Shown: positions 1 through 52,022, counted from the first letter of the stretch. The stretch is DNA of 64,000 bases from Candidatus Babeliales bacterium (GCA_963722255.1 CAVRJO010000001.1:288001-352000), one strand, 5' to 3'. Numbers and translations are program-made. The notes: generated by a model from the sequence alone, not told the origin.

Positions 1-730
1 AATAAAAAAATTAGTTACTCTTTCGGATTCTGAAGTCAAAGCAGATTTAGAGCTTCTCTTGTCCGGTGCTACCGTTACCAAGATAGTTGATGAGGCAATT
101 ATTTTCCCAGGAATAGAAGATAATGCACAGGCTGTATGGAGTCTTTTATTATTTAGCGGATATTTAACCTATACTTCTTGTAAACTTGAAAGAGGAAAAT
201 CATATTGTAATTTAACTATACCTAATGAAGAAGTTAAAATTCTTTACGAGACCTTTATTCAAGAAATCATCGAAAGTATGTTAACAAAAACCAAATTTAA
301 GAGCTTCTTAACTGCAATAATCTCAGGTGACATAGAAACTTTCTCCCTCTTATTGCAGGAGTTCATAGTTAACAGTATGAGTTTTTACGATTTACCAAAT
401 GATGAACCGGAAAAAAGTTACCATTTATTTGTTCTAGGTTTATTGGTGTTACTTGCAGATACCTACCAGATAAAATCTAATCGCGAAAGCGGTTATGGCC
501 GCTATGATATCATGCTAATACCTCATGATAAAAACAAACTGGCCACAATCATAGAATTTAAAAAAGTATCAACCGAATCATTAGAAAAAACTGCGCAAAA
601 TGCATTAGAACAAATTACTGCGAAGCAGTATGCACAAGAATTAAAAGCTTTAGGAATTACGCATATTAAAGCGCTTGGTATTGCTTTTCAAGGGAAAAAA
701 GTTCTGGTTCTTGAGCAGGATTTAGCTTAA
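1..730 (+). CDS. AAA-ATPase-like / PD-(D/E)XK nuclease (PDDEXK_9-type) protein, C-terminal part, 5'-truncated by window
   Basis: Frame open from base 2. Motifs LLLFSGYLT, IPNEEV, EKSYH, SNRESGYGRYDI, IIEFK and ALEQI..KQY are typical of this family. Confidence 0.85.
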   Translation, partial: IKKLVTLSDSEVKADLELLLSGATVTKIVDEAIIFPGIEDNAQAVWSLLLFSGYLTYTSCKLERGKSYCNLTIPNEEVKILYETFIQEIIESMLTKTKFKSFLTAIISGDIETFSLLLQEFIVNSMSFYDLPNDEPEKSYHLFVLGLLVLLADTYQIKSNRESGYGRYDIMLIPHDKNKLATIIEFKKVSTESLEKTAQNALEQITAKQYAQELKALGITHIKALGIAFQGKKVLVLEQDLA

Positions 731-845
731 ATTTTGATAAGACACGAAAATTACCCTCTATCACTACTCGTGTTTTTAATGAGAAAAAAATAGTATTTTT
801 TACCCCACTTTAATCTCTTTGCTTAAAATCAATAATAATTTCTAA

Positions 846-873
846 TTGACATTTATATTATGCCTGATATACT
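846..873 (+). promoter_or_regulatory. sigma70-type promoter for 915..1685
   Basis: TTGACA-16 nt-TATACT with an extended TG; GGAG RBS lies before the ATG at 915. Confidence 0.55.
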
Positions 874-914
874 TATAATAAAAGGTTAATTAAGAAAAAA
901 AATGGAGTTTATGT

Positions 915-1685
915 ATGAAGAAATTATTACAAAGATTTGTTATGATTTTCATAGCAATAATTGCTATAAATCATTCATTACAAGCAATGAATCAAGAAAA
1001 GATCGTCCAAGACGCTCCTTTTAGCATGTATCAAATGCCTAAAAAAATTGCTAAAGGCTATACACAAGCCTACACAACTGCTTTTTCCTTAACATTTATT
1101 CATGAATTAGGTCACTGGATTGCAAATAAAGCAATCTTGGGCAGAAAAGGAATTATTTTTGTAAATCCTTTCCAAATTTTGCCTAGGGAGGGCGGTTTGA
1201 TGACGTATAAGACCCCTCTTAGTAAGTTTTTTGAAGAATATAAAAAATCTAATAACTTTACACAAGCACTCAAACAGTTTGCACAATTGAACGTATTTAA
1301 ACCAGGAATTGGCTATGGTCTTATGTGTTTAGCCGGTCCGTTATTTGGAGTTTTAGGTTCCCTTGGATTTTTAAAAGGCAGCACAATATACACTGAATAT
1401 AAACGTAATGGAAAATTGTTTGGTCCAGCAGTTGACTATGGCATGAAACAACCACTTTTTAACAAAGATCAAAACCTTATTTCACAAATAATACCATCTA
1501 TGGCTATAATACAGAATGTCATGAATTTATCACCTGCATCAACCCTTGATGGCGAAAAAGCTTTACGAGGATTTAATATAAAACTTGGTGAACTTACACG
1601 TGCTAAAATAACCTTAGCGATTGCTTCAACAAATATTGGTCTGGCTGGATTACTAGGCTATTTGATCTATAAAGCAAACAGCTAA
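915..1685 (+). CDS. Secreted/membrane M50 (site-2 protease-like) zinc metallopeptidase
   Basis: Signal peptide, HELGH zinc motif, AGP motif, NLSPASTLDG (NxxPxxxLDG) and hydrophobic segments. Confidence 0.7.
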   Translation: MKKLLQRFVMIFIAIIAINHSLQAMNQEKIVQDAPFSMYQMPKKIAKGYTQAYTTAFSLTFIHELGHWIANKAILGRKGIIFVNPFQILPREGGLMTYKTPLSKFFEEYKKSNNFTQALKQFAQLNVFKPGIGYGLMCLAGPLFGVLGSLGFLKGSTIYTEYKRNGKLFGPAVDYGMKQPLFNKDQNLISQIIPSMAIIQNVMNLSPASTLDGEKALRGFNIKLGELTRAKITLAIASTNIGLAGLLGYLIYKANS

Positions 1686-1745
1686 AAATTTATCATAGTT
1701 TAAATCAAAAAAATGGAGATTATTAAAAAAATAACTGTTTAAACA

Positions 1746-1780
1746 ATAACCCGTGTTCCAATCTCCTTTCACGGGTTATT
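1746..1780. terminator. Stem-loop downstream of the M50 gene
   Basis: aataacccgtg ... cacgggttatt perfect 11-bp inverted repeat. Confidence 0.45.
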
Positions 1781-1881
1781 CCAAATCGGGCAATAACTAT
1801 TGTTTAAAATCTATAATCGAAATAAACAATTAGCTCGCTTTAATCAATAAAAACCTTGCATAAAATATATAGTTTTTCTAT

Positions 1882-1910
1882 TTGACATTATCTTGTTTTA
1901 TAGTTATTCT
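1882..1910 (+). promoter_or_regulatory. sigma70-type promoter for 1952..2428
   Basis: TTGACA-17 nt-TATTCT; GGAGG RBS before 1952. Confidence 0.55.
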
Positions 1911-1951
1911 ATATTTAAAGGAGATTAAGGTAAAAATTTGGAGGTTTATAT

Positions 1952-2428
1952 ATGAAAAAATTATTAGTGTCTATATCAATCTTAACCTTTTGTATTACTC
2001 TTGGCTCAGCAGTTTTTGGAATGTTCCGTCCAAAAAAATCGATACTTTTAAATACTTATGCTATTTCATCTAATTTGAGGACAAATTCAACTATTTCCAA
2101 ACTGCTTACAAGCTCGGTTTATTCAATACGAGTTTCTTCGCCGATTAAAGAATCACCACAAACGCATCGTTCAGCTAAATTGCCGAAACTTGAACCTATT
2201 AAAAAAGATAGAATAACAGCTGCAAAAGAAGATTTGAAGAAGCTTTTAAACACACCAATTGAAAATCTTTACCAACAGCTCGAAATAGTCGTTTCACCTA
2301 CAACCAAGCTGGCCCTTAACTATTTTACGTATCTTACAACAAAAAATGATATTAAGACCTTATATGATCTAGGATTAAAGGTAAGCACTAAATTTAAAGA
2401 ATCGTTAAGAAAATTAAAGATGTTCTAA
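1952..2428 (+). CDS. Hypothetical secreted protein with a presequence-like mature N-terminus
   Basis: Strong RBS and an MKK-hydrophobic signal peptide, followed by MFRPKK... Confidence 0.7.
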   Translation: MKKLLVSISILTFCITLGSAVFGMFRPKKSILLNTYAISSNLRTNSTISKLLTSSVYSIRVSSPIKESPQTHRSAKLPKLEPIKKDRITAAKEDLKKLLNTPIENLYQQLEIVVSPTTKLALNYFTYLTTKNDIKTLYDLGLKVSTKFKESLRKLKMF

Positions 2429-2554
2429 GAATTTCATCTAAAATCAGTAATTATTCGCTTAAAGCCAATATTTTATTGCTATTTTGAATTAATATTTGTT
2501 ACTATTAATATTGGAAATGTATTAGTAAAAAATTATATTATTTCAGGAGACGCT

Positions 2555-2956
2555 ATGAAAAAGTCACTTATCTATTCAGGATTACTGTTTTCACTCTTTG
2601 CTGCATCATTTGAATTGGCAGCAGAAGATCTAAGACCAATCGGAGACCTTGCCTTAGAATTTGTAAAACAAAAAGCATTTCAGGGTATTTTACATGCCAA
2701 AGAAAGAAACAAATATTCAACATTCACAACTGTAAATCAATTTAATCGTGAAAATGAAATTGTACAATCAGCCGCAAAAGACGTTCAATTAGCATCAGCA
2801 TTCATGAAAGATGCAGTTGAAAACCTAAAACATTTTAATGATAGTCAATCAAAAATTGAGTTAAAATATCTTGAACCTATAATAGAAGAAATCGAAAAAT
2901 ATAAAGAAATATTAAATGATCATATATCAAGCAAAAAAATAGGCAAACAAAATTAA
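2555..2956 (+). CDS. Hypothetical secreted helical protein
   Basis: GGAGA RBS; signal peptide MKKSLIYSGLLFSLFAASFELAA. Confidence 0.7.
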   Translation: MKKSLIYSGLLFSLFAASFELAAEDLRPIGDLALEFVKQKAFQGILHAKERNKYSTFTTVNQFNRENEIVQSAAKDVQLASAFMKDAVENLKHFNDSQSKIELKYLEPIIEEIEKYKEILNDHISSKKIGKQN

Positions 2957-2980
2957 AGATTACATAACTAGAATCTTAAA

Positions 2981-3044
2981 ATGGCAGCTCTTATTTCAAG
3001 AGCTGCCACAACTTTAAAAAGTCATCAATATTCATTTGTTGAGC
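2981..3044 (-). repeat. Diverged second copy of the rsmA 3' end plus terminator hairpin
   Basis: 58/61 nt identical to 3991..4051. Minus-strand frame reads AQQMNIDDFLKLWQLLK*. Confidence 0.9.
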
Positions 3045-3076
3045 ATAAAGTATTAATATTTCAAAGGAGACTTACC

Positions 3077-3976
3077 ATGAAAAAATCTTTTAACTATAGT
3101 ATCAAAAAATGCATTAATTTTAGCACATTTGCTCTTCTCATAGCCAGCTCGGCGAACTTTTTTTATTTAGAATCAAAATGCACCCGCTTCCCATGCCAAA
3201 ATGCCCACCGCTTTGACAACCATGAATTCGTTAAAGGAACTTATCTTTTGGACAGACTCATTTTTACAAAAAATTTCCCTAATAATTTAAAACTACAAGT
3301 AAATGATGGTGGTGATTTTAATTTTCCAATAACAAAAAATAAATTAATCGACAATGTTTTCTATTTTAATAAACAGGGGCATGGTGACTTATATTTACAC
3401 GACAATTCAACAGTTGTGATCAGTGATAATCAAGGCAATAAATTGGTTGTAACACGACGACAAGAAGAACACAGAGGAAATAAGCTCAATTTTCCCGATA
3501 CAATAACCATCTACCTTTTTAACAAAAAGAATTATGAGGCTAACAAAAAAAATTATGGAACAAAAATTGTATTTGATGTTAATAAATTTGAAAACCTTCT
3601 CACGCAAACCACCACTTTTGATAATTTACCTGGAAGGGTAAGAACAGTAGAAAGAGTTGGCGGAAAAGATCCAAGACCTGCGATAGGGAGCATGAAACTC
3701 AAACTATCATTTGACCCAAGCTATAATAATATCGACTTAGAAATAGCATTTGAAAACCGTTTTGATAACAAGATTGAAGTAAAAATAGAAAGCCATGAAA
3801 ACCCCCTTATCGAAGCCACGTCAAGCACCTCTTACAAAAATTATGATATCACAACTTGGGATAAAGATTCTCAAAACAAAATATCTTATTACAATGATTT
3901 ATACAAAAATAACATTATTGTAAAAGAAGCAATGACGCAGGATGATTATAATGCAATAAAATACGTCTTAGAATAG
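3077..3976 (+). CDS. Hypothetical secreted protein (beta-rich); start placed at ATG 3077
   Basis: AAGGAGA RBS before 3077 and an N-terminal hydrophobic stretch. The ORF-track start at 2981 lies within the repeat. Confidence 0.7.
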   Translation: MKKSFNYSIKKCINFSTFALLIASSANFFYLESKCTRFPCQNAHRFDNHEFVKGTYLLDRLIFTKNFPNNLKLQVNDGGDFNFPITKNKLIDNVFYFNKQGHGDLYLHDNSTVVISDNQGNKLVVTRRQEEHRGNKLNFPDTITIYLFNKKNYEANKKNYGTKIVFDVNKFENLLTQTTTFDNLPGRVRTVERVGGKDPRPAIGSMKLKLSFDPSYNNIDLEIAFENRFDNKIEVKIESHENPLIEATSSTSYKNYDITTWDKDSQNKISYYNDLYKNNIIVKEAMTQDDYNAIKYVLE

Positions 3977-3988
3977 AAAATGACAATT

Positions 3989-4021
3989 TTATGGCAGCTC
4001 TTATTTCAAGAGTTGCCATAA
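3989..4021. terminator. Hairpin overlapping the rsmA stop, between convergent genes
   Basis: ttatggcagctctt-atttc-aagagttgccataa inverted repeat. Confidence 0.6.
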
Positions 4022-4780
4022 GTTTAAAAAGTCATCAATATTCATTTGTTGTGCTCTCAATGCAAGGGTTTCATCAGAAAGTTTGGAAAGATCATAATGC
4101 GTTGATACCAAATTATTCCGCAAGGTCCTTCGTGGATGCGCAAAGCATAACTTAATAAATTTCCAAAAAGCTTCCTCATTTGGTATCGGTTTAACATCCT
4201 TTTTAGGCTTAAAATAGACCAATCGAGAAAACACCTTAGGGGGAGGAAAAAATGCCCCAGGTGGAATCTTTTTCAAAAGTTTAAGATCAAAGTAATACCC
4301 ATAAAATAAAGCGGGAAATCCATAGCCCTTCCCACCTTTTTTTGTTAATTTTTGAGCAACTTCTTCTTGGGTCATGACAACGCCTTCTTGAATAATTTCT
4401 CTGTGCTTATAAAGCAACTGAAAGATTGGGAACGTTATCTGATAAGGCAAATTGGCTAATAAAACCCATGGTTTATATGGTTCAAATTGAGAAAAATCAA
4501 CATCCAAAATATTTTCTTCTTTAACGTCTAAGCGTTTATCATTAATTGATTCTCGCAAATATGAAACCCATTGTGTATCAATCTCAAAAACCCACAAACG
4601 AGCAATATTCTGTTCTAAAATAGCGCGTGTAAGAAATCCATCTCCACCGCCAATTTCAAAAACGGACGTTTCAGGAGTTAATTTTACCGTTTGAATAGCC
4701 TCATCAACAACCGACCGATCACGCAAAAAATGCTGGCCAAACTGCTTTTTTAAAGGGATACCTTGCGAATATACTGTCAT
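4001..4780 (-). CDS. rsmA: 16S rRNA m6,2A dimethyltransferase RsmA/KsgA
   Basis: KKQFGQHFL, EIGGGDG, ANLPYQI, FFPPPKVFS and RRTLRNNL motifs. Confidence 0.95.
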   Translation of the reverse strand: MTVYSQGIPLKKQFGQHFLRDRSVVDEAIQTVKLTPETSVFEIGGGDGFLTRAILEQNIARLWVFEIDTQWVSYLRESINDKRLDVKEENILDVDFSQFEPYKPWVLLANLPYQITFPIFQLLYKHREIIQEGVVMTQEEVAQKLTKKGGKGYGFPALFYGYYFDLKLLKKIPPGAFFPPPKVFSRLVYFKPKKDVKPIPNEEAFWKFIKLCFAHPRRTLRNNLVSTHYDLSKLSDETLALRAQQMNIDDFLNLWQLLK

Positions 4781-22080: not shown

Positions 22081-22647
22081 ATGATGGCTATTTCAATAAA
22101 ACAATCATCTTTACAAATAATGGTAAGTATACTTTTATGTATGCTTTTTATGATCTCGTGCATAACATTCTGGTATCAATCAACCATAGTAACTGATCAA
22201 CATATTGTTAATGATATTGCCATTCTTGGATCAATTTTTAAGAAGATTAACGAAGCATGCGAAATTGTTGATTTTAAGTTTCAGCAAAACAATGCTATCG
22301 ACTATTTGCAAGTCATTGCCTTTGAAGGATCTGAACTTGGAAGCATGGCGCTTAAACATCCAAAAAAATGGAAAGGGCCTTATCTGCGTGATAACCTTAC
22401 TGCCCAAGGAAAGTTTTATCAAATTGTTAAAACAAATGATGGCTATTTTATTGTACCTGGCGATGGCGTTATTTTGCACAATGGCAAAACAGTTGGCAAA
22501 GATATTAAATTTGATCTAAATGCAAACATCCCTGCACTGATAAAAGACCCAGAAATGCTTCAGTTTCAAGGTAAGCCATTGGCTGCAAAACTGGAAATCG
22601 GCTTGCAAAAGCCTACCATACCGGTTGACGAAGTTATAGAAGAATAG
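22081..22647 (+). CDS. GspG/pseudopilin-like protein
   Basis: Single N-terminal TM helix, 'IVNDIAILGSIFKK' helix and HPKKWKGPYL (GspG WxGPYL motif). The classical GFTLIE prepilin site is not seen. Confidence 0.55.
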   Translation: MMAISIKQSSLQIMVSILLCMLFMISCITFWYQSTIVTDQHIVNDIAILGSIFKKINEACEIVDFKFQQNNAIDYLQVIAFEGSELGSMALKHPKKWKGPYLRDNLTAQGKFYQIVKTNDGYFIVPGDGVILHNGKTVGKDIKFDLNANIPALIKDPEMLQFQGKPLAAKLEIGLQKPTIPVDEVIEE

Positions 22648-22716
22648 TTTATGATTTTTCAAAATATGCAAATAAAAAATAATAAAATTTTATATCTCTT
22701 GATTTAAAGGAATAGT

Positions 22717-24636
22717 ATGAAGATTATTACAATATTCTACTTATTTATTGCATGTATAAACAATATGACTATTTATAGCTCAGAAGCCATTAAGGCAATT
22801 GATTGGAGCAAAGAAAGACCCGAAGTTCCTAAGGGCACTGATTCACAAAAAGAACGCCAAGAAAAAGCTTTAATAGCAAAACGAGATGAACTTAAAAGAA
22901 ATATCGAAGAAGAAAAGACAGGAAGCCTGCCAGATGATCCAAAAATAAAACTTCAGCAAGATATTCTCGATTATTATGAGGCAACATTGGAACAGTTTAA
23001 TGCTGAAAAACGATTGGAAGAAAATCCACAAGATAAAGAAGCGCAAGAATCAAAAGCAATTAAAGAAAAAGAACGAAATGATTTAAATACTAAAATTACT
23101 CAACAAATTGCATCAACATTTAGCCCAGCATCCAATAATGGCCAAGGAGAAAAACAGCCTGCAGGAGCACAAAGAATTATTGAAAAAATAAAATCGGCGA
23201 TTAAGAATCTCATTTCAAAAATAGTTGATATAAAGTTTTCCAATAAAGCTACGATTGAAAAAGTAGCTACCTCACTTAAAAAATCCATAGCTGATCCAAA
23301 AATTGCGAATCTACCTGCTGACTTTCAAACAAAACCTATGATGGAAAAAATAGAACTCTCATTACAGGCATATGACAATCCCGAAAATAGTAACATTCAA
23401 AGTTTCTATAAACAACAAATAGAAGAATATGTTAACGCATTACAAAATTCTGATATTGAATTTTCAGTACAAAATAAAGATCCCTATGCCATAGCAAAAC
23501 ATCATAGTGAGATTATTAAAAAATTATATGATATCGGCATTAATCAAGACCAGTTAGATAAATTGACACTTGTTAAAGACAATGCCATTAACACAATAAA
23601 AGAAACTTTTAAAACCCCTAATGCGCAAGAAAATGTAAAAAAGTTCTTTACCGAAACTAAAGCTGATAGTTTTAATCGCAGTTCTTTTGAATCAAAATTT
23701 GATCAACTAGTTCCAAGAAAATTTCTTGGTGAGGAATTAAACACCTTTAAAAAAAATTTCGATGAACTAAAAACCGAGTTATCTCAATTAGAGAATTATG
23801 CTCACTACAGCTTAGATATAGTTAACACAGAATATAGATCTCCATTACTCGAATTTTTACAAAAAAAATACTCTGAGTTAGCAACCATAATGCAGCGAGT
23901 CTTAAACTATAATCGGAAAACAGAGGGTATTGACCAACTAGTAACGGATGCAATGATACAAGATTTACAAGCAAAAGCTAAACAAGCGGAAACATGGCTT
24001 ATTGAAAATGCTGCATCAGCAGAAAAAAGAAAACCCTCAACAGAAGCTATTAAAAAAATCGAAAACGAAAATATAAATGCAAAACCTCTAGACTCGCAAG
24101 CACTAATAATTGCCAACACAAAAGCTCCTCATTACATCGATGAGTTTAAAGCACAACTTTCAAAAACTAATGATCCTCTTGAAATAACATTGCAAGAAAA
24201 ATTTACAAAAATCTCTGAAATTCTTGCTGATTTTATTACTTTTTCAAAAGATGCAGATCCTTCAAAAGCGGGTGTTGACACCGCACAATTGATTCTTGAA
24301 AACATACAAAATCTAAAGAACTGGATCGATCTTTACGCAACCACCTTTAACTTATCTGAAGAACAACTCAAGAAACTTGCATCATATTATTCTTCTTTAA
24401 ACGAACTTTTTGCAAAGATATCTCAACAAAGAAATAATGATATACAAAATATTTTTAGGCGTTTAGATGATGGATCTCTTATATTAGTTGATAAAAGCCG
24501 CCGCAAAGTAAGCGGAGAAGTTTATGTTCCCATTATATTTAGCATTGAAAAAATCCAATCACTCGATGAGATCATCACACAATTTAAAGCTGAACGTAAG
24601 GCAATGACTACAATCAAAGAATCCGGTGGCCTATAA
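22717..24636 (+). CDS. Secreted helical protein, paralog A
   Basis: AAGGA RBS and signal peptide. Shares blocks with 24881..26830 (AYDNPEN/AYNRPEN, DIEF/DIEY, ADPSK, RLDDG/RLQDG, FKAER/FKAGR). Confidence 0.8.
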   Translation: MKIITIFYLFIACINNMTIYSSEAIKAIDWSKERPEVPKGTDSQKERQEKALIAKRDELKRNIEEEKTGSLPDDPKIKLQQDILDYYEATLEQFNAEKRLEENPQDKEAQESKAIKEKERNDLNTKITQQIASTFSPASNNGQGEKQPAGAQRIIEKIKSAIKNLISKIVDIKFSNKATIEKVATSLKKSIADPKIANLPADFQTKPMMEKIELSLQAYDNPENSNIQSFYKQQIEEYVNALQNSDIEFSVQNKDPYAIAKHHSEIIKKLYDIGINQDQLDKLTLVKDNAINTIKETFKTPNAQENVKKFFTETKADSFNRSSFESKFDQLVPRKFLGEELNTFKKNFDELKTELSQLENYAHYSLDIVNTEYRSPLLEFLQKKYSELATIMQRVLNYNRKTEGIDQLVTDAMIQDLQAKAKQAETWLIENAASAEKRKPSTEAIKKIENENINAKPLDSQALIIANTKAPHYIDEFKAQLSKTNDPLEITLQEKFTKISEILADFITFSKDADPSKAGVDTAQLILENIQNLKNWIDLYATTFNLSEEQLKKLASYYSSLNELFAKISQQRNNDIQNIFRRLDDGSLILVDKSRRKVSGEVYVPIIFSIEKIQSLDEIITQFKAERKAMTTIKESGGL

Positions 24637-24668
24637 AAGCTTATTCTGGTCAATTTTATAAGAGATTG

Positions 24669-24737
24669 TTGGCTGCAAAACTGGAAATCTGCTTGCAAAA
24701 ACCTACCATATCGGTTGATGAAGTTATGGAAGATTAA
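24669..24737 (+). repeat. Diverged second copy of the GspG-like gene 3' end
   Basis: 62/69 nt identical to 22579..22647; reads LAAKLEICLQKPTISVDEVMED*. Confidence 0.9.
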
Positions 24738-24880
24738 AAGTCCTGAATTGTCTCGTATCCCTACCCTTCCCTATTAATAAATTATTTCAATTTGAATATT
24801 TTATTGAAAAATCACTTTGTTTTTTGCTATCCTTATACTAAATAGAAATTACTATGAAAAAAGAGTATAAAGGGGCGGCT

Positions 24881-26830
24881 ATGAACTTTTTAAAAAAAAT
24901 ATCAGTTTTTATTGTTTTTTTGAGCTTTATAAATATTTGTTTGGCTGGTGAAGCACCACGCGGAATAATAGAAAGGCCCCAAGAACCTACTACTCCTTCG
25001 GCAAGAGATACTCTTGAACTTGAAGGTAAGCGTAATCTTGAAATTGATAAACAAGAAAAAGAAAAACAATTAACAAATGAAAAAGATCCAGCAAAACAGC
25101 AGAACTTTCAGATGAACTCAGGATAATTGATAATCAACAAAAATATATCAAAAGTTTAATAGAAACTTTCGATGCCAAAGAGCGGCTAAAAATAAATTCT
25201 AATGACCCCGCAGCCAAAAAAACAATCAGAGATAATAAAGAAGCAAGAAAATTCTTGGATGAACAACTTCAAATCCTATCAGAAGCAATTCAAAAAGGAT
25301 ACATACCTGCTGATGGAGAAACAACAAATCAACCTTCATTGGTATCTAAACTAGTTGAAGCAATATTTTCTCCAATACAAAATTTCATAAAAAAATTTAA
25401 TGTAAAACGAGAATTGCAACCAGAACAAGCAAAAAAAACACTAGATAAAACTATAAAACAATCAACTACCATAGGGGGAGGCCCAATTGAAAGTCCAGAG
25501 AAAATACAATTTAGCTTAAAACAAAAATCGGTTGCAGATCAACTTGATTTATGGATAACTGCATATAATAGACCGGAGAACGTCGGTGTACAAAAATTGT
25601 ATAAAGATTTTATAACAGATTACATAACTAAACTTGAAAATGCCGATATTGAGTATACTTTACAAAATAAAAAGGATCCAGAAGCAATACAAAGGCATCA
25701 TGAAGAAATTGTTAATGCCTTACGTGCAATAGGAATTGATCAGGCTCAAATAGATGCATTGAATAAATACAAAGATGACGCGGTTAATAAAATCAAAACA
25801 ACCTTTAGCACACAAGATAAAATTAATAGAGTTAATAAGTTTTTTGATGCAACTTCAGCGGATAATTTTAGCTTAGAGCAATATAACAAATTAGCAGATG
25901 CTACCAATAAACTCGATACTAACTCTCCAGAACAGTTGAAAACTATGATTGCAAATGTCGAAACATTAAATGCTATAGTAGATGAGTTGAATGATTATGC
26001 AACATATTCCTTAGATTCGTTACCACAAGACATAAGAACCAAGATGCTAGAGTTTGTGACAAACGAGCAAAATTTTTTAATAAATTGTTATGAAGATATC
26101 ATTCAAGCTAAACTATTAGGAACTTTAGTTACAGAAGAAAAGGTGAAAGACCTGCTTAGAAAACTTAAACGTAACCAAGCATATTTAAGAAAAAACGGAA
26201 CAATTATTGCAAGACGTTGGTGAAAAAAATTTAATTGCAAACCAAAAACGCCTTGAAGTACAAGAATTAATAAAAAAAAATATGGATGCAAAACCATTGA
26301 ACGATCCATTTTTAAAATTAGCAAATGAAACAATTCCTTCTGGAATTAGCGAATTTAGCAAACTCTTACGAGAAAATCCACTTGCAACTGATACCAAAGA
26401 TAAATTTGCAGTTATTACAAGAGCGATAGATAGTTTCGTAAAAAATGCTGGCGAAGCCGATCCTTCAAAAAAGGCAGTAGAAGCTTCAGAAGCTATTCTT
26501 ACTGAAATAGATAATTTACAGGATTATATACAGCTTTATAATGATGAAACTGAATTGACACCAGAGCAACAAAAACAACTTGTGCAATACTATAAAACTC
26601 TCGATGATCTGTATACAAAAATTGCTGGACAGGCAGTTAATGATATGAATAATCTTTTAAAACGTTTGCAAGATGGAACAGTTATTTACTTGGAAAAAAG
26701 CAAGAGAAATACTCCTAAAGATCAATTTTTAATTCAACAAGGTTTAACAAAACAGGAGACTGCTGATTTTATAGAATCTAAATTTAAAGCAGGTCGCATT
26801 AATATGATTACATCCCAGGAAATTTCTTAA
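24881..26830 (+). CDS. Secreted helical protein, paralog B (two frameshifts near 25100 and 26210)
   Basis: The joined ORFs align collinearly with 22717..24636. Signal peptide MNFLKKISVFIVFLSFINICLA. Confidence 0.7.
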
Positions 26831-31489: not shown

Positions 31490-31508
31490 ATATCAGTTCC
31501 AATACAGA

Positions 31509-33599
31509 TTATTGATTATCGACGATTTTAAGACGAACTCTACCTGAATCTGGATCATAATCAAGAACTTCAACTTTAAGCGGATCGTCTATCTTATATT
31601 CCTTGTTCAAGTTCGCTTGTTTCTGTTTTGGAATCATCGAAATATGGACAAGCCCATCAAAATCAGGAACTAGTTCTACAAAAAGACCAAAGTCAGCAAT
31701 ACGCTTAATTTTTCCATTAAAGACTTGACCCTTATCAATTTGACCAGCTAAGACTTTTACCCAACCTATAGCTTCATCCATTTTAGGACCAGGATGGCCA
31801 AAGATTTTAACAAGTCCATCACTTTCAATATCGATCATAGTGCCCGTTTTTTCAGTAATGCTTCGTATAGTTTTTCCGCCTGTACCAATGATTGCACCAA
31901 TCTTATCTTGCTTTATTTTAAGCGTAACAATATGTGGTACTAACTCAGAAAGTTGCTCATTCGGTTTGGTCATAACTTTTTGCATTTCCATCAAAATATG
32001 ATGACGGCCTCGTTTTGCTTGATGCAATGCTTTTTGAAATACTTCTCTAGGTAAACCACCTTTATATTTAATATCCATCTGGATAGCGGTAATACCTTCA
32101 GAAGTACCTGCAACTTTAAAATCCATAAGACCAAATGCATCTTCAATGCCAGTAATATCACTTATAGGTTGGAAATCACCTTCAGAACTTTGTAATAAGC
32201 CCATAGCAATACCACTACCATTTTTTTAATCGGTACTCCACCATTCATTAATGCCATAGTAGATCCACATACTGTTGCCATAGACGTTGAACCATCAGAT
32301 TCAAGCATATCGGCAACAATGCGAATGGTATAAGGAAAATCTTCTTTATTTGGCAATATTGGTTCAAGCGCTGAAGCAGCCAAATGCCCATGTCCAATTT
32401 CACGTCTTCCAGGTCCACGCATTGGTCGAACTTCACCAACAGAAAATGGAGGGAAATTATAATGTAACATAAATGATTTTTCAACGGTATCACCCATCAA
32501 ATCTTCTACTTTTTGCTCATCTTGACCACCACCAAGCGTTACTGAAACAATGCTTGAGTTCTACCACGAGTAAAAACGGCAGAACCATGAGTAAATGGCA
32601 ATAAACCAACTTCAGTAGAAATCATTCGTACTTGTTCAAATGATCTACCATCAACACGTTGACCAAGTTTAAAAATAAGTTCAGTAATTTTTTTCTTGAG
32701 AACGTCATCAAAAATATACTCAAAAATCTTAGAGGGGATAGCGAGTTCTTCAATCTGCGCTTTATGTTCCTCTTTAAACTCCTCAAGAAGATCGTCAAGC
32801 GCTTTACCACGTTTAACCTTATCAGAAACAAATGTAAGCTTTACACGTTCTTCAGTTAAAAATGAATTAAACTTTTCAGTCCATTCTGTCCAATTAATTG
32901 GATCAACAATCGGTTCTTTAGGTATGCCAACCTGAGCCTGTATCTCTTCTTGCCAAGCAATTTGTTCTTTAATCTGTGCATGTGCTTTAAAAAATACCTC
33001 AACCAAATCATCTTCTGAAATTTCACTGGTGCATCCTTCTACCATATTAATACCTTCTTTTGTTCCTGCAACAGTGATGCGAACATCGGATTCAAGCGTT
33101 TGAGAATAAAGAGGGTTTAAAATCCATTCCCCATCAACACGAGCAACTTCAACTGCACTTACAGGGCCTAAAAAAGGTATCTTGGAAATAGCTAACGCCA
33201 ATGAAGAGGCACCTAATGCAATAACTGCCGGTTGATGCTCTTTATCAACTGAATAGACCGTAACAATATTTGAACTTGATTGAAATAGTTTTCAGGAAAC
33301 AATGGTCGAATAGCACGATCAATAAAACGTCCGGTTAAAACTTCTTTATCGGTAGCTTTACCTTCACGCTTATAATAACCACCGGGAATTTTTCCTGCGG
33401 CAGCAAACTGTTCGCGATAATCGATTGTCAAAGGTAAAAAACCAGGAAAATCTGTTGATGGAGCTGAAACGACAGTTGCTAAAACAACGGTACCTCCTTG
33501 TTTAAACCAGACAGCACCATCGGCTTGTGTCGCAAATTTACCTATTTCAACTTCATAACCAAATTTTTTTAAACTGAATGATTTTACCGTTTTTACCAT
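31509..33599 (-). CDS. pnp: Polyribonucleotide nucleotidyltransferase (about 3 frameshifts, probable sequencing errors)
   Basis: [35 protein letters not shown] (IIGTGGK) and S1 domains spread across 4 ORFs. Confidence 0.93.
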
Positions 33600-33630
33600 T
33601 ACAAACCTATACTAATCAAATTTATATATA

Positions 33631-33892
33631 TTATTTTCGTATCCCTAAACGATCAATTAAACTCTTATATTTATCTATATCTTTTTTTCTAGATATTGTA
33701 AATATTTTTTCTTCGGCTTACCATTTTAAAAAGACCTCTTTTTGAACCAAAATCTTTTTTATTATTATTAAAATGGACAGTTAAGTCTTGAATGCGATTT
33801 GTTAAAAACGCAACTTGGACTTCAATAGAACCTGTATCATTTTCACTTTGAGCAAACTCACTCATTAACTTTTTTTTCATCTCTTTATTCAT
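33631..33892 (-). CDS. rpsO: 30S ribosomal protein S15 (frameshift near 33700)
   Basis: DTGSIEVQVAFLT, KRGLFKMV; ends LGIRK* in the shifted frame. Confidence 0.92.
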
Positions 33893-33924
33893 TTATATCC
33901 TTAACACGATTATTAATCAACTAA

Positions 33925-33999
33925 TGGTAGGCGCGAGCGGAATTGAACCGCTGACCCTTGCTACGTCAAAGCAATGCTCTACCACTGAGCTACGCGCCT
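33925..33999 (-). tRNA. tRNA-Val(GAC)
   Basis: Cloverleaf, anticodon loop TT-GAC-GT, encoded CCA. Confidence 0.93.
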
Positions 34000-34015
34000 T
34001 CCTAACCATTTCTAT

Positions 34016-38142
<4,127 letters not shown>

Positions 38143-38146
38143 CTGA

Positions 38147-42478
<4,332 letters not shown>

Positions 42479-42562
42479 TAAACTGTTCCTCCTTATACCA
42501 AAATATTGCTTTTCACACCCATCGATCAACTCGACTAAATTACTCTTTCCTTAGATTATCAA

Positions 42563-51474: not shown

Positions 51475-51726
51475 ATGGCTGCAAAGGAAAATAAGGCTCG
51501 CATTTCTATAGATGTCACAAAAGAACAACACAAGCTCCTAAAAGCGCGAGCTGCTTTGAGCGGAAAAACATTACAACAACTTATCTTAGATTCGGTTGGT
51601 GAAATTCCAGAGCAAGAATTATGGCTCTATGATCCTGCTAATAAGGAACTCGTAGAACGACTTAAAAATAGTTTTACAAAAGAAGCAACAGTAGAGTGGG
51701 ATTCAATAAAACATAAGTTTGAATAA
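51475..51726 (+). CDS. Ribbon-helix-helix antitoxin
   Basis: RISIDVTKEQHKLLKARAALSGKTL RHH pattern; directly upstream of the toxin. Confidence 0.75.
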   Translation: MAAKENKARISIDVTKEQHKLLKARAALSGKTLQQLILDSVGEIPEQELWLYDPANKELVERLKNSFTKEATVEWDSIKHKFE

Positions 51727-51728
51727 TA

Positions 51729-52022
51729 ATGTCAAAACTAAAGCTTACTGATAACGCTCTTAAAGATCTTGAACTTTTAAAAAAAGATCAGTCAAAAATT
51801 AGAATCTTAAAAGACGTTACTAAAGCGCTCAACCTCATGCAAGAAAACTTGCGTCATCCATCGTTAAATACCCATGAGTATAAAGGAATTAAAGGTCCTA
51901 ATGGAGAAAAGATTTTTGAAGCTTATGCTCAACAAAAAACATCTGGAGCTTATAGAATTTTTTGGCATTATGGTCCTGAAAAAATTACTGTAACAGTCAT
52001 TGCTATTGTGCCTCATCCTTAA
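51729..52022 (+). CDS. RelE/ParE-superfamily toxin
   Basis: LTDNALKDL, RHPSLNTHEY and AYRIFWHYG..IVPHP; 2-nt gap after the antitoxin. Confidence 0.7.
   Translation: MSKLKLTDNALKDLELLKKDQSKIRILKDVTKALNLMQENLRHPSLNTHEYKGIKGPNGEKIFEAYAQQKTSGAYRIFWHYGPEKITVTVIAIVPHP

Follow-up and report, generated by a model that had tools for sequence, protein, structure and literature searches.

The locus described here raises the question of why the 3′ end of a housekeeping gene occurs twice with a single predicted secreted gene in between, and whether the extra copy is a decaying duplicate or the end of another strain's allele. The locus lies in a window of 64,000 nucleotides (the whole stretch of DNA that was analysed; G000:C1:288001-352000) from the 1.62-Mb, two-contig genome of a Candidatus Babeliales bacterium (G000). 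The gene in question, rsmA (ksgA; positions 4001-4780 of the window, minus strand), is intact, encodes a 259-aa protein that scores 206 bits against TIGR00755 (cut-off 171), and is the last in a conserved run that consists of a gene for a 436-aa protein, mreB and rsmA. Direct repeats of 64 nt (2981-3044 and 3991-4054) that are 94% identical and spaced by 1010 nt flank 946 bp of DNA; in the complete genome, the repeat has a sole strong second match (E = 2e-22), the next one being unrelated (E = 0.17). Read in the rsmA frame, the repeat comprises 17 codons, the TAA stop and 10 additional nucleotides. The working 3′ end (3991-4054, minus strand) reads AQQMNIDDFLNLWQLLK, with TAA at 4003-4001 and a hairpin at 3988-4022. 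The orphan stub (2981-3044, minus strand) holds the last 17 codons of a putative rsmA allele, AQQMNIDDFLKLWQLLK; its stop (TAA) lies at 2993-2991 and is followed by 10 nt from the downstream arm of the hairpin. All four differences (GCA/GCT, AAC/AAG, TTA/TTG and CAA/CAG) fall at third codon positions, three are synonymous, and the stop is kept. Alignment and frame reading confirm the repeat and its four third-position differences as given in the initial annotation, and the repeat behind rsmA is a real feature. Identity drops sharply at 3044/3045. This edge, 32 nt ahead of the start codon of the enclosed gene (hereinafter, cargo), is the likely illegitimate joint, and the two rsmA units have nothing in common outside the 64 bp. 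A tblastn extension of the stub to position 3071 (26 aa) was rejected because the weak similarity overlaps the ribosome-binding leader of the cargo gene.

Over its last codons, each copy of the rsmA end forms a strong hairpin (-16 to -21 kcal/mol, z about -6), which in the orphan copy is a perfect 11-bp hairpin (2982-3008, not assigned to either strand; -18.6 and -20.7 kcal/mol, z -5.9 and -5.7) without a canonical U-tract; two of the four repeat differences fall within the stem or at its end. The 'terminator' that had been annotated here is this strong hairpin, but a consensus terminator scan did not call it, and the structure overlaps the last codons. In the orphan copy, the hairpin is likely to act as a terminator between converging genes.

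The cargo gene (3077-3976, plus strand) converges on rsmA and encodes a 299-aa protein with a predicted Sec signal peptide. Its leader (3045-3076, plus strand) carries AAGGAG at 3064-3069 and is similar to that of the preceding gene 2555-2956. Because a promoter scan detected no strong sigma-70 promoter between the joint and the ATG, that is, within the 32-nt leader, expression of the cargo may be weak or depend on read-through; near-consensus sigma-70 promoters are present at 846-873 and 1882-1910, ahead of the orphan genes 915-1685 and 1952-2428. The cargo matched no Pfam or NCBIfam family, had no match in Atlas and, when used as the query, was not found in 150 other genomes of the order; a word-based search retrieved only the query itself, and profile searches with the cargo family yielded no further members. 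This family is small, consisting of three remote homologs (P0002-P0004) and a paralog in G000 (C2:451452-452123), 27-30% identical, with the motifs P(F/Y)QxPHRF and GxKLIFDVDKFE in common. Thus, what had been described as a single orphan secreted gene is indeed a lone gene between the repeat copies but, given the weak paralog and the three remote homologs, not an orphan in the strict sense. The signal peptide is borderline by a crude hydrophobicity rule; in two homologs and the paralog, however, a signal-like N-terminus is followed by P(F/Y)QxPHRF, and because these N-termini and the motif align to the cargo, export and the start at 3077 are both supported. An alternative in-frame ATG at 2981, giving a 331-aa ORF, was discarded because the homologs align to the 3077 start instead. 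The structure model (pLDDT 52, from 5 sequences) is of low confidence and beta-rich, and the fold searches were uninformative (Foldseek best E 0.25; VIA best Z 4.2, rmsd 3.9 over 98 aligned residues). To call the cargo an effector is a guess that takes the predicted signal peptide as its sole basis and is borrowed from the lifestyle; in a cultured member of the Babeliales, 44% of the proteins are described as having signal peptides, with enrichment of orphans (PMC6561590).

The gene on the other side of the stub (2555-2956, plus strand) encodes a 133-aa orphan protein, predicted to be secreted, and faces the orphan stub in the same convergent arrangement as 3077-3976 faces the working rsmA. 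Comparison of the two proteins revealed no similarity (E = 0.09), and 2555-2956 is likely to be the occupant of the slot behind rsmA in the other strain. The rest of the variable interval (2-2428, plus strand) holds the end of a PD-(D/E)XK gene (2-730) and the orphans 915-1685 and 1952-2428. Between rsmA and the gene for a 470-aa protein that precedes glmS, there are five genes in G000 and one unrelated gene in the genome of a relative, G001; with the same core genes on both flanks, the slot behind rsmA is therefore variable. The window contains a second scar of this kind (22081-24736, plus strand) in which a conserved gene for a 188-aa protein (22081-22647) is followed by a gene for a 639-aa predicted secreted cargo protein (22717-24636) and a 68-nt stub (24669-24736) whose stop, at the same position, differs from that of the gene (TAG versus TAA). 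Beyond the 43 ORFs of the window that were scanned with Pfam, most ORFs resemble core genes or core-gene fragments by translation. In addition, a ParD-type antitoxin gene followed by a gene for a 97-aa protein (51475-52022) is likely a toxin-antitoxin pair.

We modelled the decay of a duplicate as a duplication followed by neutral drift of the dead copy and purifying selection on the living one (kappa 2-8, omega 0.05-0.2). Under this null model, four third-position differences at the rsmA locus have a P of 0.025-0.037, and three synonymous differences out of four a P of 0.08-0.23. In favour of a second allele, at the N/K site, K, the residue of the orphan copy, is the second commonest among the relatives (12 of 68) and N occurs in 5 of 68; the nearest relative (L045) is orphan-like at two of the four sites and like the working gene at the other two. 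That two of the four differences touch the hairpin counts against this reading. Taken alone, the rsmA repeat weakly favours a second allele over decay and is suggestive rather than decisive. The second allele or an empty site was sought in 350 loci, of which 344 lacked the pattern, the six matches being those of G000 itself, and a stub at rsmA was absent from all of the 53 rsmA loci (a partly redundant set) whose downstream sequence reached 3 kb or more. The search for genomes of the same species found none, the nearest relative (85% aa identity) offers only 93 nt of flank, and two read runs with small word shares gave no cover of 2000-4143.

The rsmA scar is one of many. Core genes were defined as reciprocal best hits, and free copies of their ends were sought 0.1-20 kb away in G000, in the main contig only of G001 and in the first 980 of the 1337 kb of the genome of a second relative, G003. 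Free copies of 3′ ends lie downstream rather than upstream of their genes: 13 versus 1 among 750 core genes in G000, 5 versus 1 among 759 in G001, and 5 versus 0 among 567 in G003, and none were found in three equal far windows per genome. Copies of 5′ ends upstream are rarer (3, 2 and 4, respectively). The host genes include ruvC, sbcC, rplQ, mgtE, an M3 peptidase, a metallo-beta-lactamase-fold gene, a pilin and recJ. In 20-kb loci around rsmA, the pattern appeared in 4 of 503 Babeliales genes and in 0 of 975 non-Babeliales genes (Fisher P 0.013), where the four are not all independent because two share one locus that overlaps L037, and the two locus sets differ in GC and gene content. Three scar-bearing loci lie outside the whole-contig scans. 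Scars at sbcD/sbcC recur in several genomes (L278:4584-5816; L300:4493-5737; G001 C1 639719-642427; sbcC of G000), with the sbcD 3′ end affected twice and sbcC at both its 3′ and 5′ ends, which makes this pair a possible hot spot.

From the scans we curated a set of 27 hand-picked scars, 15 from G000 and 12 from G001 and G003. Dropped were G000 C1:502420, which overlaps paralog ends, a serine-recombinase match in G003, 5′ matches of repeat-protein and MITE-like types, and one of two identical stubs in G001; manual additions were mgtE, recJ (5′ type) and an ABC-F gene. The stubs comprise 25-210 coding nucleotides (median 69), and in 15 of the 21 3′ scars, the outer homology edge lies between -12 and +13 nt of the stop codon. 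No internal stop was present in 27 of 28 scar rows. Neither a motif nor a frame bias nor a conserved position was detected around 21 joints. By the crude rule, 16 of 18 cargo genes are predicted to encode secreted proteins, compared with 248 of 707 among core genes and 422 of 761 among the non-core ones. The stubs span a range of ages, with 79-98% identity, indels and, in one case, an IS inside the cargo. The two identical stubs in G001 (C1 1079700-1083537) lie 1.6 and 3.2 kb behind one gene, and so the unit of cargo plus stub was itself duplicated there. In another region of G000 (C2:509550-516527, L139), three tandem CdiI-like genes (one of them Pfam-scanned), with a helicase/methyltransferase-like gene amid them, are interspersed with copies of the 3′ end of a TPR gene.

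Across the 27 curated scars, 87 of the 143 coding differences are synonymous, compared with 49-64 expected under duplication and decay (P at most 8e-5). The excess persists in the scars of G000 alone (51 of 87; P 1e-5 to 8e-3) and upon removal of the strongest G003 stub (65 of 118; P 5e-6 to 0.015). That stub (G003 C1 116924-122092, joined L225-L226), a 217-nt end of a gene for an 895-aa protein, presumably secA-like as judged by eye, shows 22 synonymous differences out of 25 and is the clearest single case. For the pooled set, an origin of both repeats from a single target sequence is rejected, and the scars likely combine two alleles rather than a gene and its decayed duplicate. The claim that the orphan copy behind rsmA is the 3′ end of another allele accordingly draws its support from the genome-wide scars and does not carry at the rsmA locus alone. 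The pooled synonymous share, 0.61, is lower than the allele model predicts at omega 0.05; at omega 0.2, the 87 synonymous differences are at or just under the expected 89-98. Some of the stubs have therefore probably undergone decay as well or represent genuine duplicates. Replacement-rich stubs exist, such as those of the metallo-beta-lactamase-fold gene (MBL; 4 synonymous and 9 nonsynonymous differences) and of PAP2 (5 and 8, with a stop). Stop-to-stop swaps (four of the six changed stops) were set aside as evidence because, by a hand estimate, decay gives a stop-to-stop share of about 0.6.

The same data bear on a true long target duplication, in which the cargo would have come in by itself, its insertion would have copied 64 bp from the end of the resident rsmA, and the copies would have drifted apart, the working one synonymously and the dead one randomly. 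The rsmA locus matches the definition of such insertions (PMC2853133), decay is tolerable there by some statistics (P 0.03-0.23, depending on the statistic), and some stubs have indels and many replacements. The pooled synonymous excess and the termination of homology near the stop in 15 of 21 scars point the other way, as do the double scars described next, in which near-identical stubs accompany cargo that is only 32% identical. On balance, we regard a long target duplication as unlikely, although it is the least unlikely of the rivals considered here.

Two scars in G000 are double and have the structure A-X-b/a-Y-B, where the slash marks the joint: one at sbcC/rplQ (at C2:224842; C2:220345-227992, L135) and one at PAP2/pilin (at C2:470390; C2:467638-472181, L137). 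In both, the stubs of two different core genes stand back to back and overlap by 1 nt where they meet. Nucleotide identity of the stubs at sbcC/rplQ is 97% and 95%, the sole related cargo pair is 32% identical at the amino acid level, and the units of 2.6-2.8 kb show no alignment beyond the stubs and this pair. Similar disparities are seen between the stub and the facing cargo at mgtE (93% versus 35%) and at a HAD gene (92% versus 47%). Unless the cargo evolved extremely fast, dead stub DNA could not remain so much closer than co-duplicated coding DNA, a contrast for which versions from two strains in tandem directly account. The PAP2/pilin units, by contrast, are about 78-80% identical along their whole length and could be an old tandem duplication. 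A local tandem duplication might also have come first elsewhere, followed by homologous or homeologous exchange of the cargo and the rsmA end of one unit. Such a sequence of events has been proposed for partial rRNA duplications (PMC3457768), the leaders of 2555-2956 and 3077-3976 are alike, and several scars have a diverged cargo homolog as the next gene. Yet this scenario requires that a pair of rare events be repeated at many loci, with the second crossover limited to a short stub or leader, and the rsmA units lack any likeness beyond the 64 bp, so that we consider it improbable, more so than a target duplication.

An integrase could have produced a similar outcome. The initial annotation had offered an attL/attR-like replacement of the 3′ end as one option, and in this case an integrase-bearing element would have replaced the rsmA end, as e14 and phage 21 do at icd, and later shrunk to a single gene. 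Elements that carry a duplicate of the displaced part of a gene exist (PMC12540744), and G000 encodes, elsewhere in the genome, two large serine recombinases, along with a short remnant match. However, no integrase or transposase was detected by Pfam among the 43 scanned ORFs of the window (including 22081-26223), in agreement with the initial annotation, and no integrase among the scanned cargo genes. The only two tyrosine recombinases of G000 have XerC/XerD-type models as their best matches. The serine recombinase that was inspected (C1:63787-65274; site C1:63454-65274, L129) abuts an apparent tRNA end repeat, recognised by eye, which we take to be an ordinary integrase site. Given that no integrase fits, that the targets number more than a dozen and are unrelated, that their joints have no motif in common and that inserts are mostly of 1-3 kb, we abandoned this option as highly improbable. 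Three reverse-transcriptase matches (C1:85847, C1:189896 and C2:248930) with identical scores and frame length, and a broken fourth, are probably group II introns. An RNA intermediate, with the joint as the transcription start, was considered as well; in most convergent cases, about 70-240 nt separate the joint from the predicted cargo start downstream of it, two joints fall inside a second core gene, and this route is not favoured.

The scars could, in principle, be products of the assembler, with two co-occurring strains stitched in tandem. The assembly is of metagenome type and indel-prone, with 73 split genes in G000 compared with 16 in G001; the genes at 31500-42500 of the window, which we take for pnp, rpoB and rpoC by resemblance, are heavily frameshifted and therefore point to sequencing indels. 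The junctions have no independent read cover. But the joints offer the assembler an overlap of only 0-1 nt and contain no Ns, a like anatomy is present in G001, G003 and the loci L078, L278 and L284, and the stubs are of varied age. We thus judge a chimera to be very unlikely, if slightly less so than a shrunken integrative element.

The best-fitting explanation, which we consider probable, is that, without an integrase, one homologous crossover and one illegitimate joint linked the versions of a variable interval from two different strains. The slot behind rsmA would differ between strains; donor DNA would enter the cell, probably by competence (ComEC, DprA), and a long anchor on one side would be paired by RecA. 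On the opposite side, there would be only a stub of 25-210 nt, whose shortness and divergence would keep it from pairing efficiently; the ends there would be sealed almost blunt, plausibly through Ku and the NHEJ ligase. Short mismatched repeats would escape collapse and persist, leaving both rsmA ends and the predicted secreted genes of both strains in tandem. The stubs would be short because longer ones would allow an ordinary swap to be completed or would later collapse. A variant in which the fragment is circularised before a single crossover within the stub would give the same product; in E. coli, recircularised degraded DNA is described as integrating with duplications of 109-950 bp (PMC3240628). 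The polarity could be either: the donor may have supplied the rsmA end together with 3077-3976, the stub being resident, or else the left block that ends in the stub, a frayed donor end, with rsmA and 3077-3976 being resident. The earlier proposal of capture by recombination inside rsmA with an illegitimate junction therefore survives as the best model in its one-sidedness, with the direction of capture going either way.

The gene inventory of G000 is compatible with such a route, with RecA, ComEC, DprA, Ku (C2:25512-26324) and, above cut-off, a stand-alone NHEJ ligase domain (C2:700758-701774), as well as a second ATP-dependent ligase (C1:218478-220421), all in a reduced genome. Searches of two overlapping genome sets detected Ku in 9 of 31 and in 15 of 29 genomes, predominantly large ones, with mean sizes of 1.3-1.5 Mb for Ku-positive genomes and about 1.0-1.1 Mb for the others (for one Ku-negative list, 1.02 Mb with all 22 genomes and 1.01 Mb with one omitted). 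Among the three scar loci outside the whole-contig scans, one is in a genome of uncertain completeness without a Ku match and one in a genome, likewise of uncertain completeness, with a Ku fragment, for which reason the role of Ku is put forward as a hypothesis.

How do these scars compare with known systems? Insertion with long target duplication was reportedly recognised by Nobusato and colleagues in 2000. As characterised in a later survey, it involves repeats longer than 30 bp, inserts shorter than 20 kb and no mobile-element gene, with repeats that often span a start or stop codon and occurrence mostly in naturally competent species (Furuta, Abe and Kobayashi 2010, PMC2853133). The rsmA scar fits this outline, with a 64-bp repeat around 946 bp that spans the stop and no mobile gene. 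Unlike the restriction-modification cargo of that survey, predicted secreted genes are found here, the rsmA cargo having no Pfam or NCBIfam match, 13 of the 750 core genes of one genome are affected, and the pooled repeats behave as two alleles. One homologous side and one illegitimate joint are also features of homology-facilitated illegitimate recombination (HFIR) and of the single-crossover duplications described beside it (PMC3240628). In that account, the products of E. coli conjugation have either duplications of 109-950 bp (the single-crossover class) or 0-1 nt of homology at the joint (the HFIR class). In its classical form, HFIR usually entails a deletion of about 1 kb and microhomology of 3-10 bp, whereas here 1 nt is shared at the two joints, the rsmA joint not among them, where both parents can be read, and both alleles are kept.

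The displacement arrays of the V. cholerae T6SS and of Rhs/CDI loci are similar in that a homology-anchored module shifts the old 3′ end downstream, the alleles are non-sister, and no integrase is known, as far as the account of these arrays goes (Kirchberger et al. 2017, PMC5361080). In contrast to these arrays, the anchors here are housekeeping genes genome-wide rather than the constant part of a toxin, and there is no immunity logic. The minimal mobile elements of Neisseria similarly have variable content between conserved flanks that moves by flank recombination, but they are described as the outcome of a two-crossover swap that leaves no stub, while the scars described here have their contents stacked, akin to a half-finished swap (PMC3787668). 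Integrase-mediated replacement of 3′ ends, as in e14 and phage 21 at icd, shares with the scars a duplicate end that keeps the target gene intact (PMC12540744) but the scars have no integrase, no common core and many unrelated targets. Merodiploids made by transformation are described as requiring pre-existing repeats and being far larger than the scars (PMC3784515). What sets the scars apart from these known systems is their density, the predicted secreted cargo, the allele evidence and the 1-nt joints. We found no report of such scars in Babeliales, with supplements and subscription papers outside the scope of the search, and in the Babeliales genome papers searched by term, competence, ComEC and horizontal were all absent.

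Taken singly, the rsmA scar is a modest finding. Obligate intracellular bacteria are usually thought of as gene-losing, with little exchange of DNA. The scars suggest that, in this Babeliales lineage, splices of DNA from kin likely occur at the ends of housekeeping genes, frequently and in datable form, and nearly always add predicted secreted proteins. The stubs provide a simple computable marker of integrase-free gene gain that distinguishes captured alleles from true paralogs, and they make the part of bacterial end joining in gene capture amenable to testing. A much more tentative idea, which we hold to be possible but on balance doubtful, is that the stacking of alleles is a main driver by which the secretome of these intracellular parasites of protists grows, with uptake of DNA from kin and completion of one-sided recombination by Ku/LigD end joining placing alternative alleles of hypervariable slots next to each other. 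If so, many apparent tandem paralogs of secreted proteins would in fact derive from allele capture, and the larger genomes among the Babeliales would be attributable to Ku.
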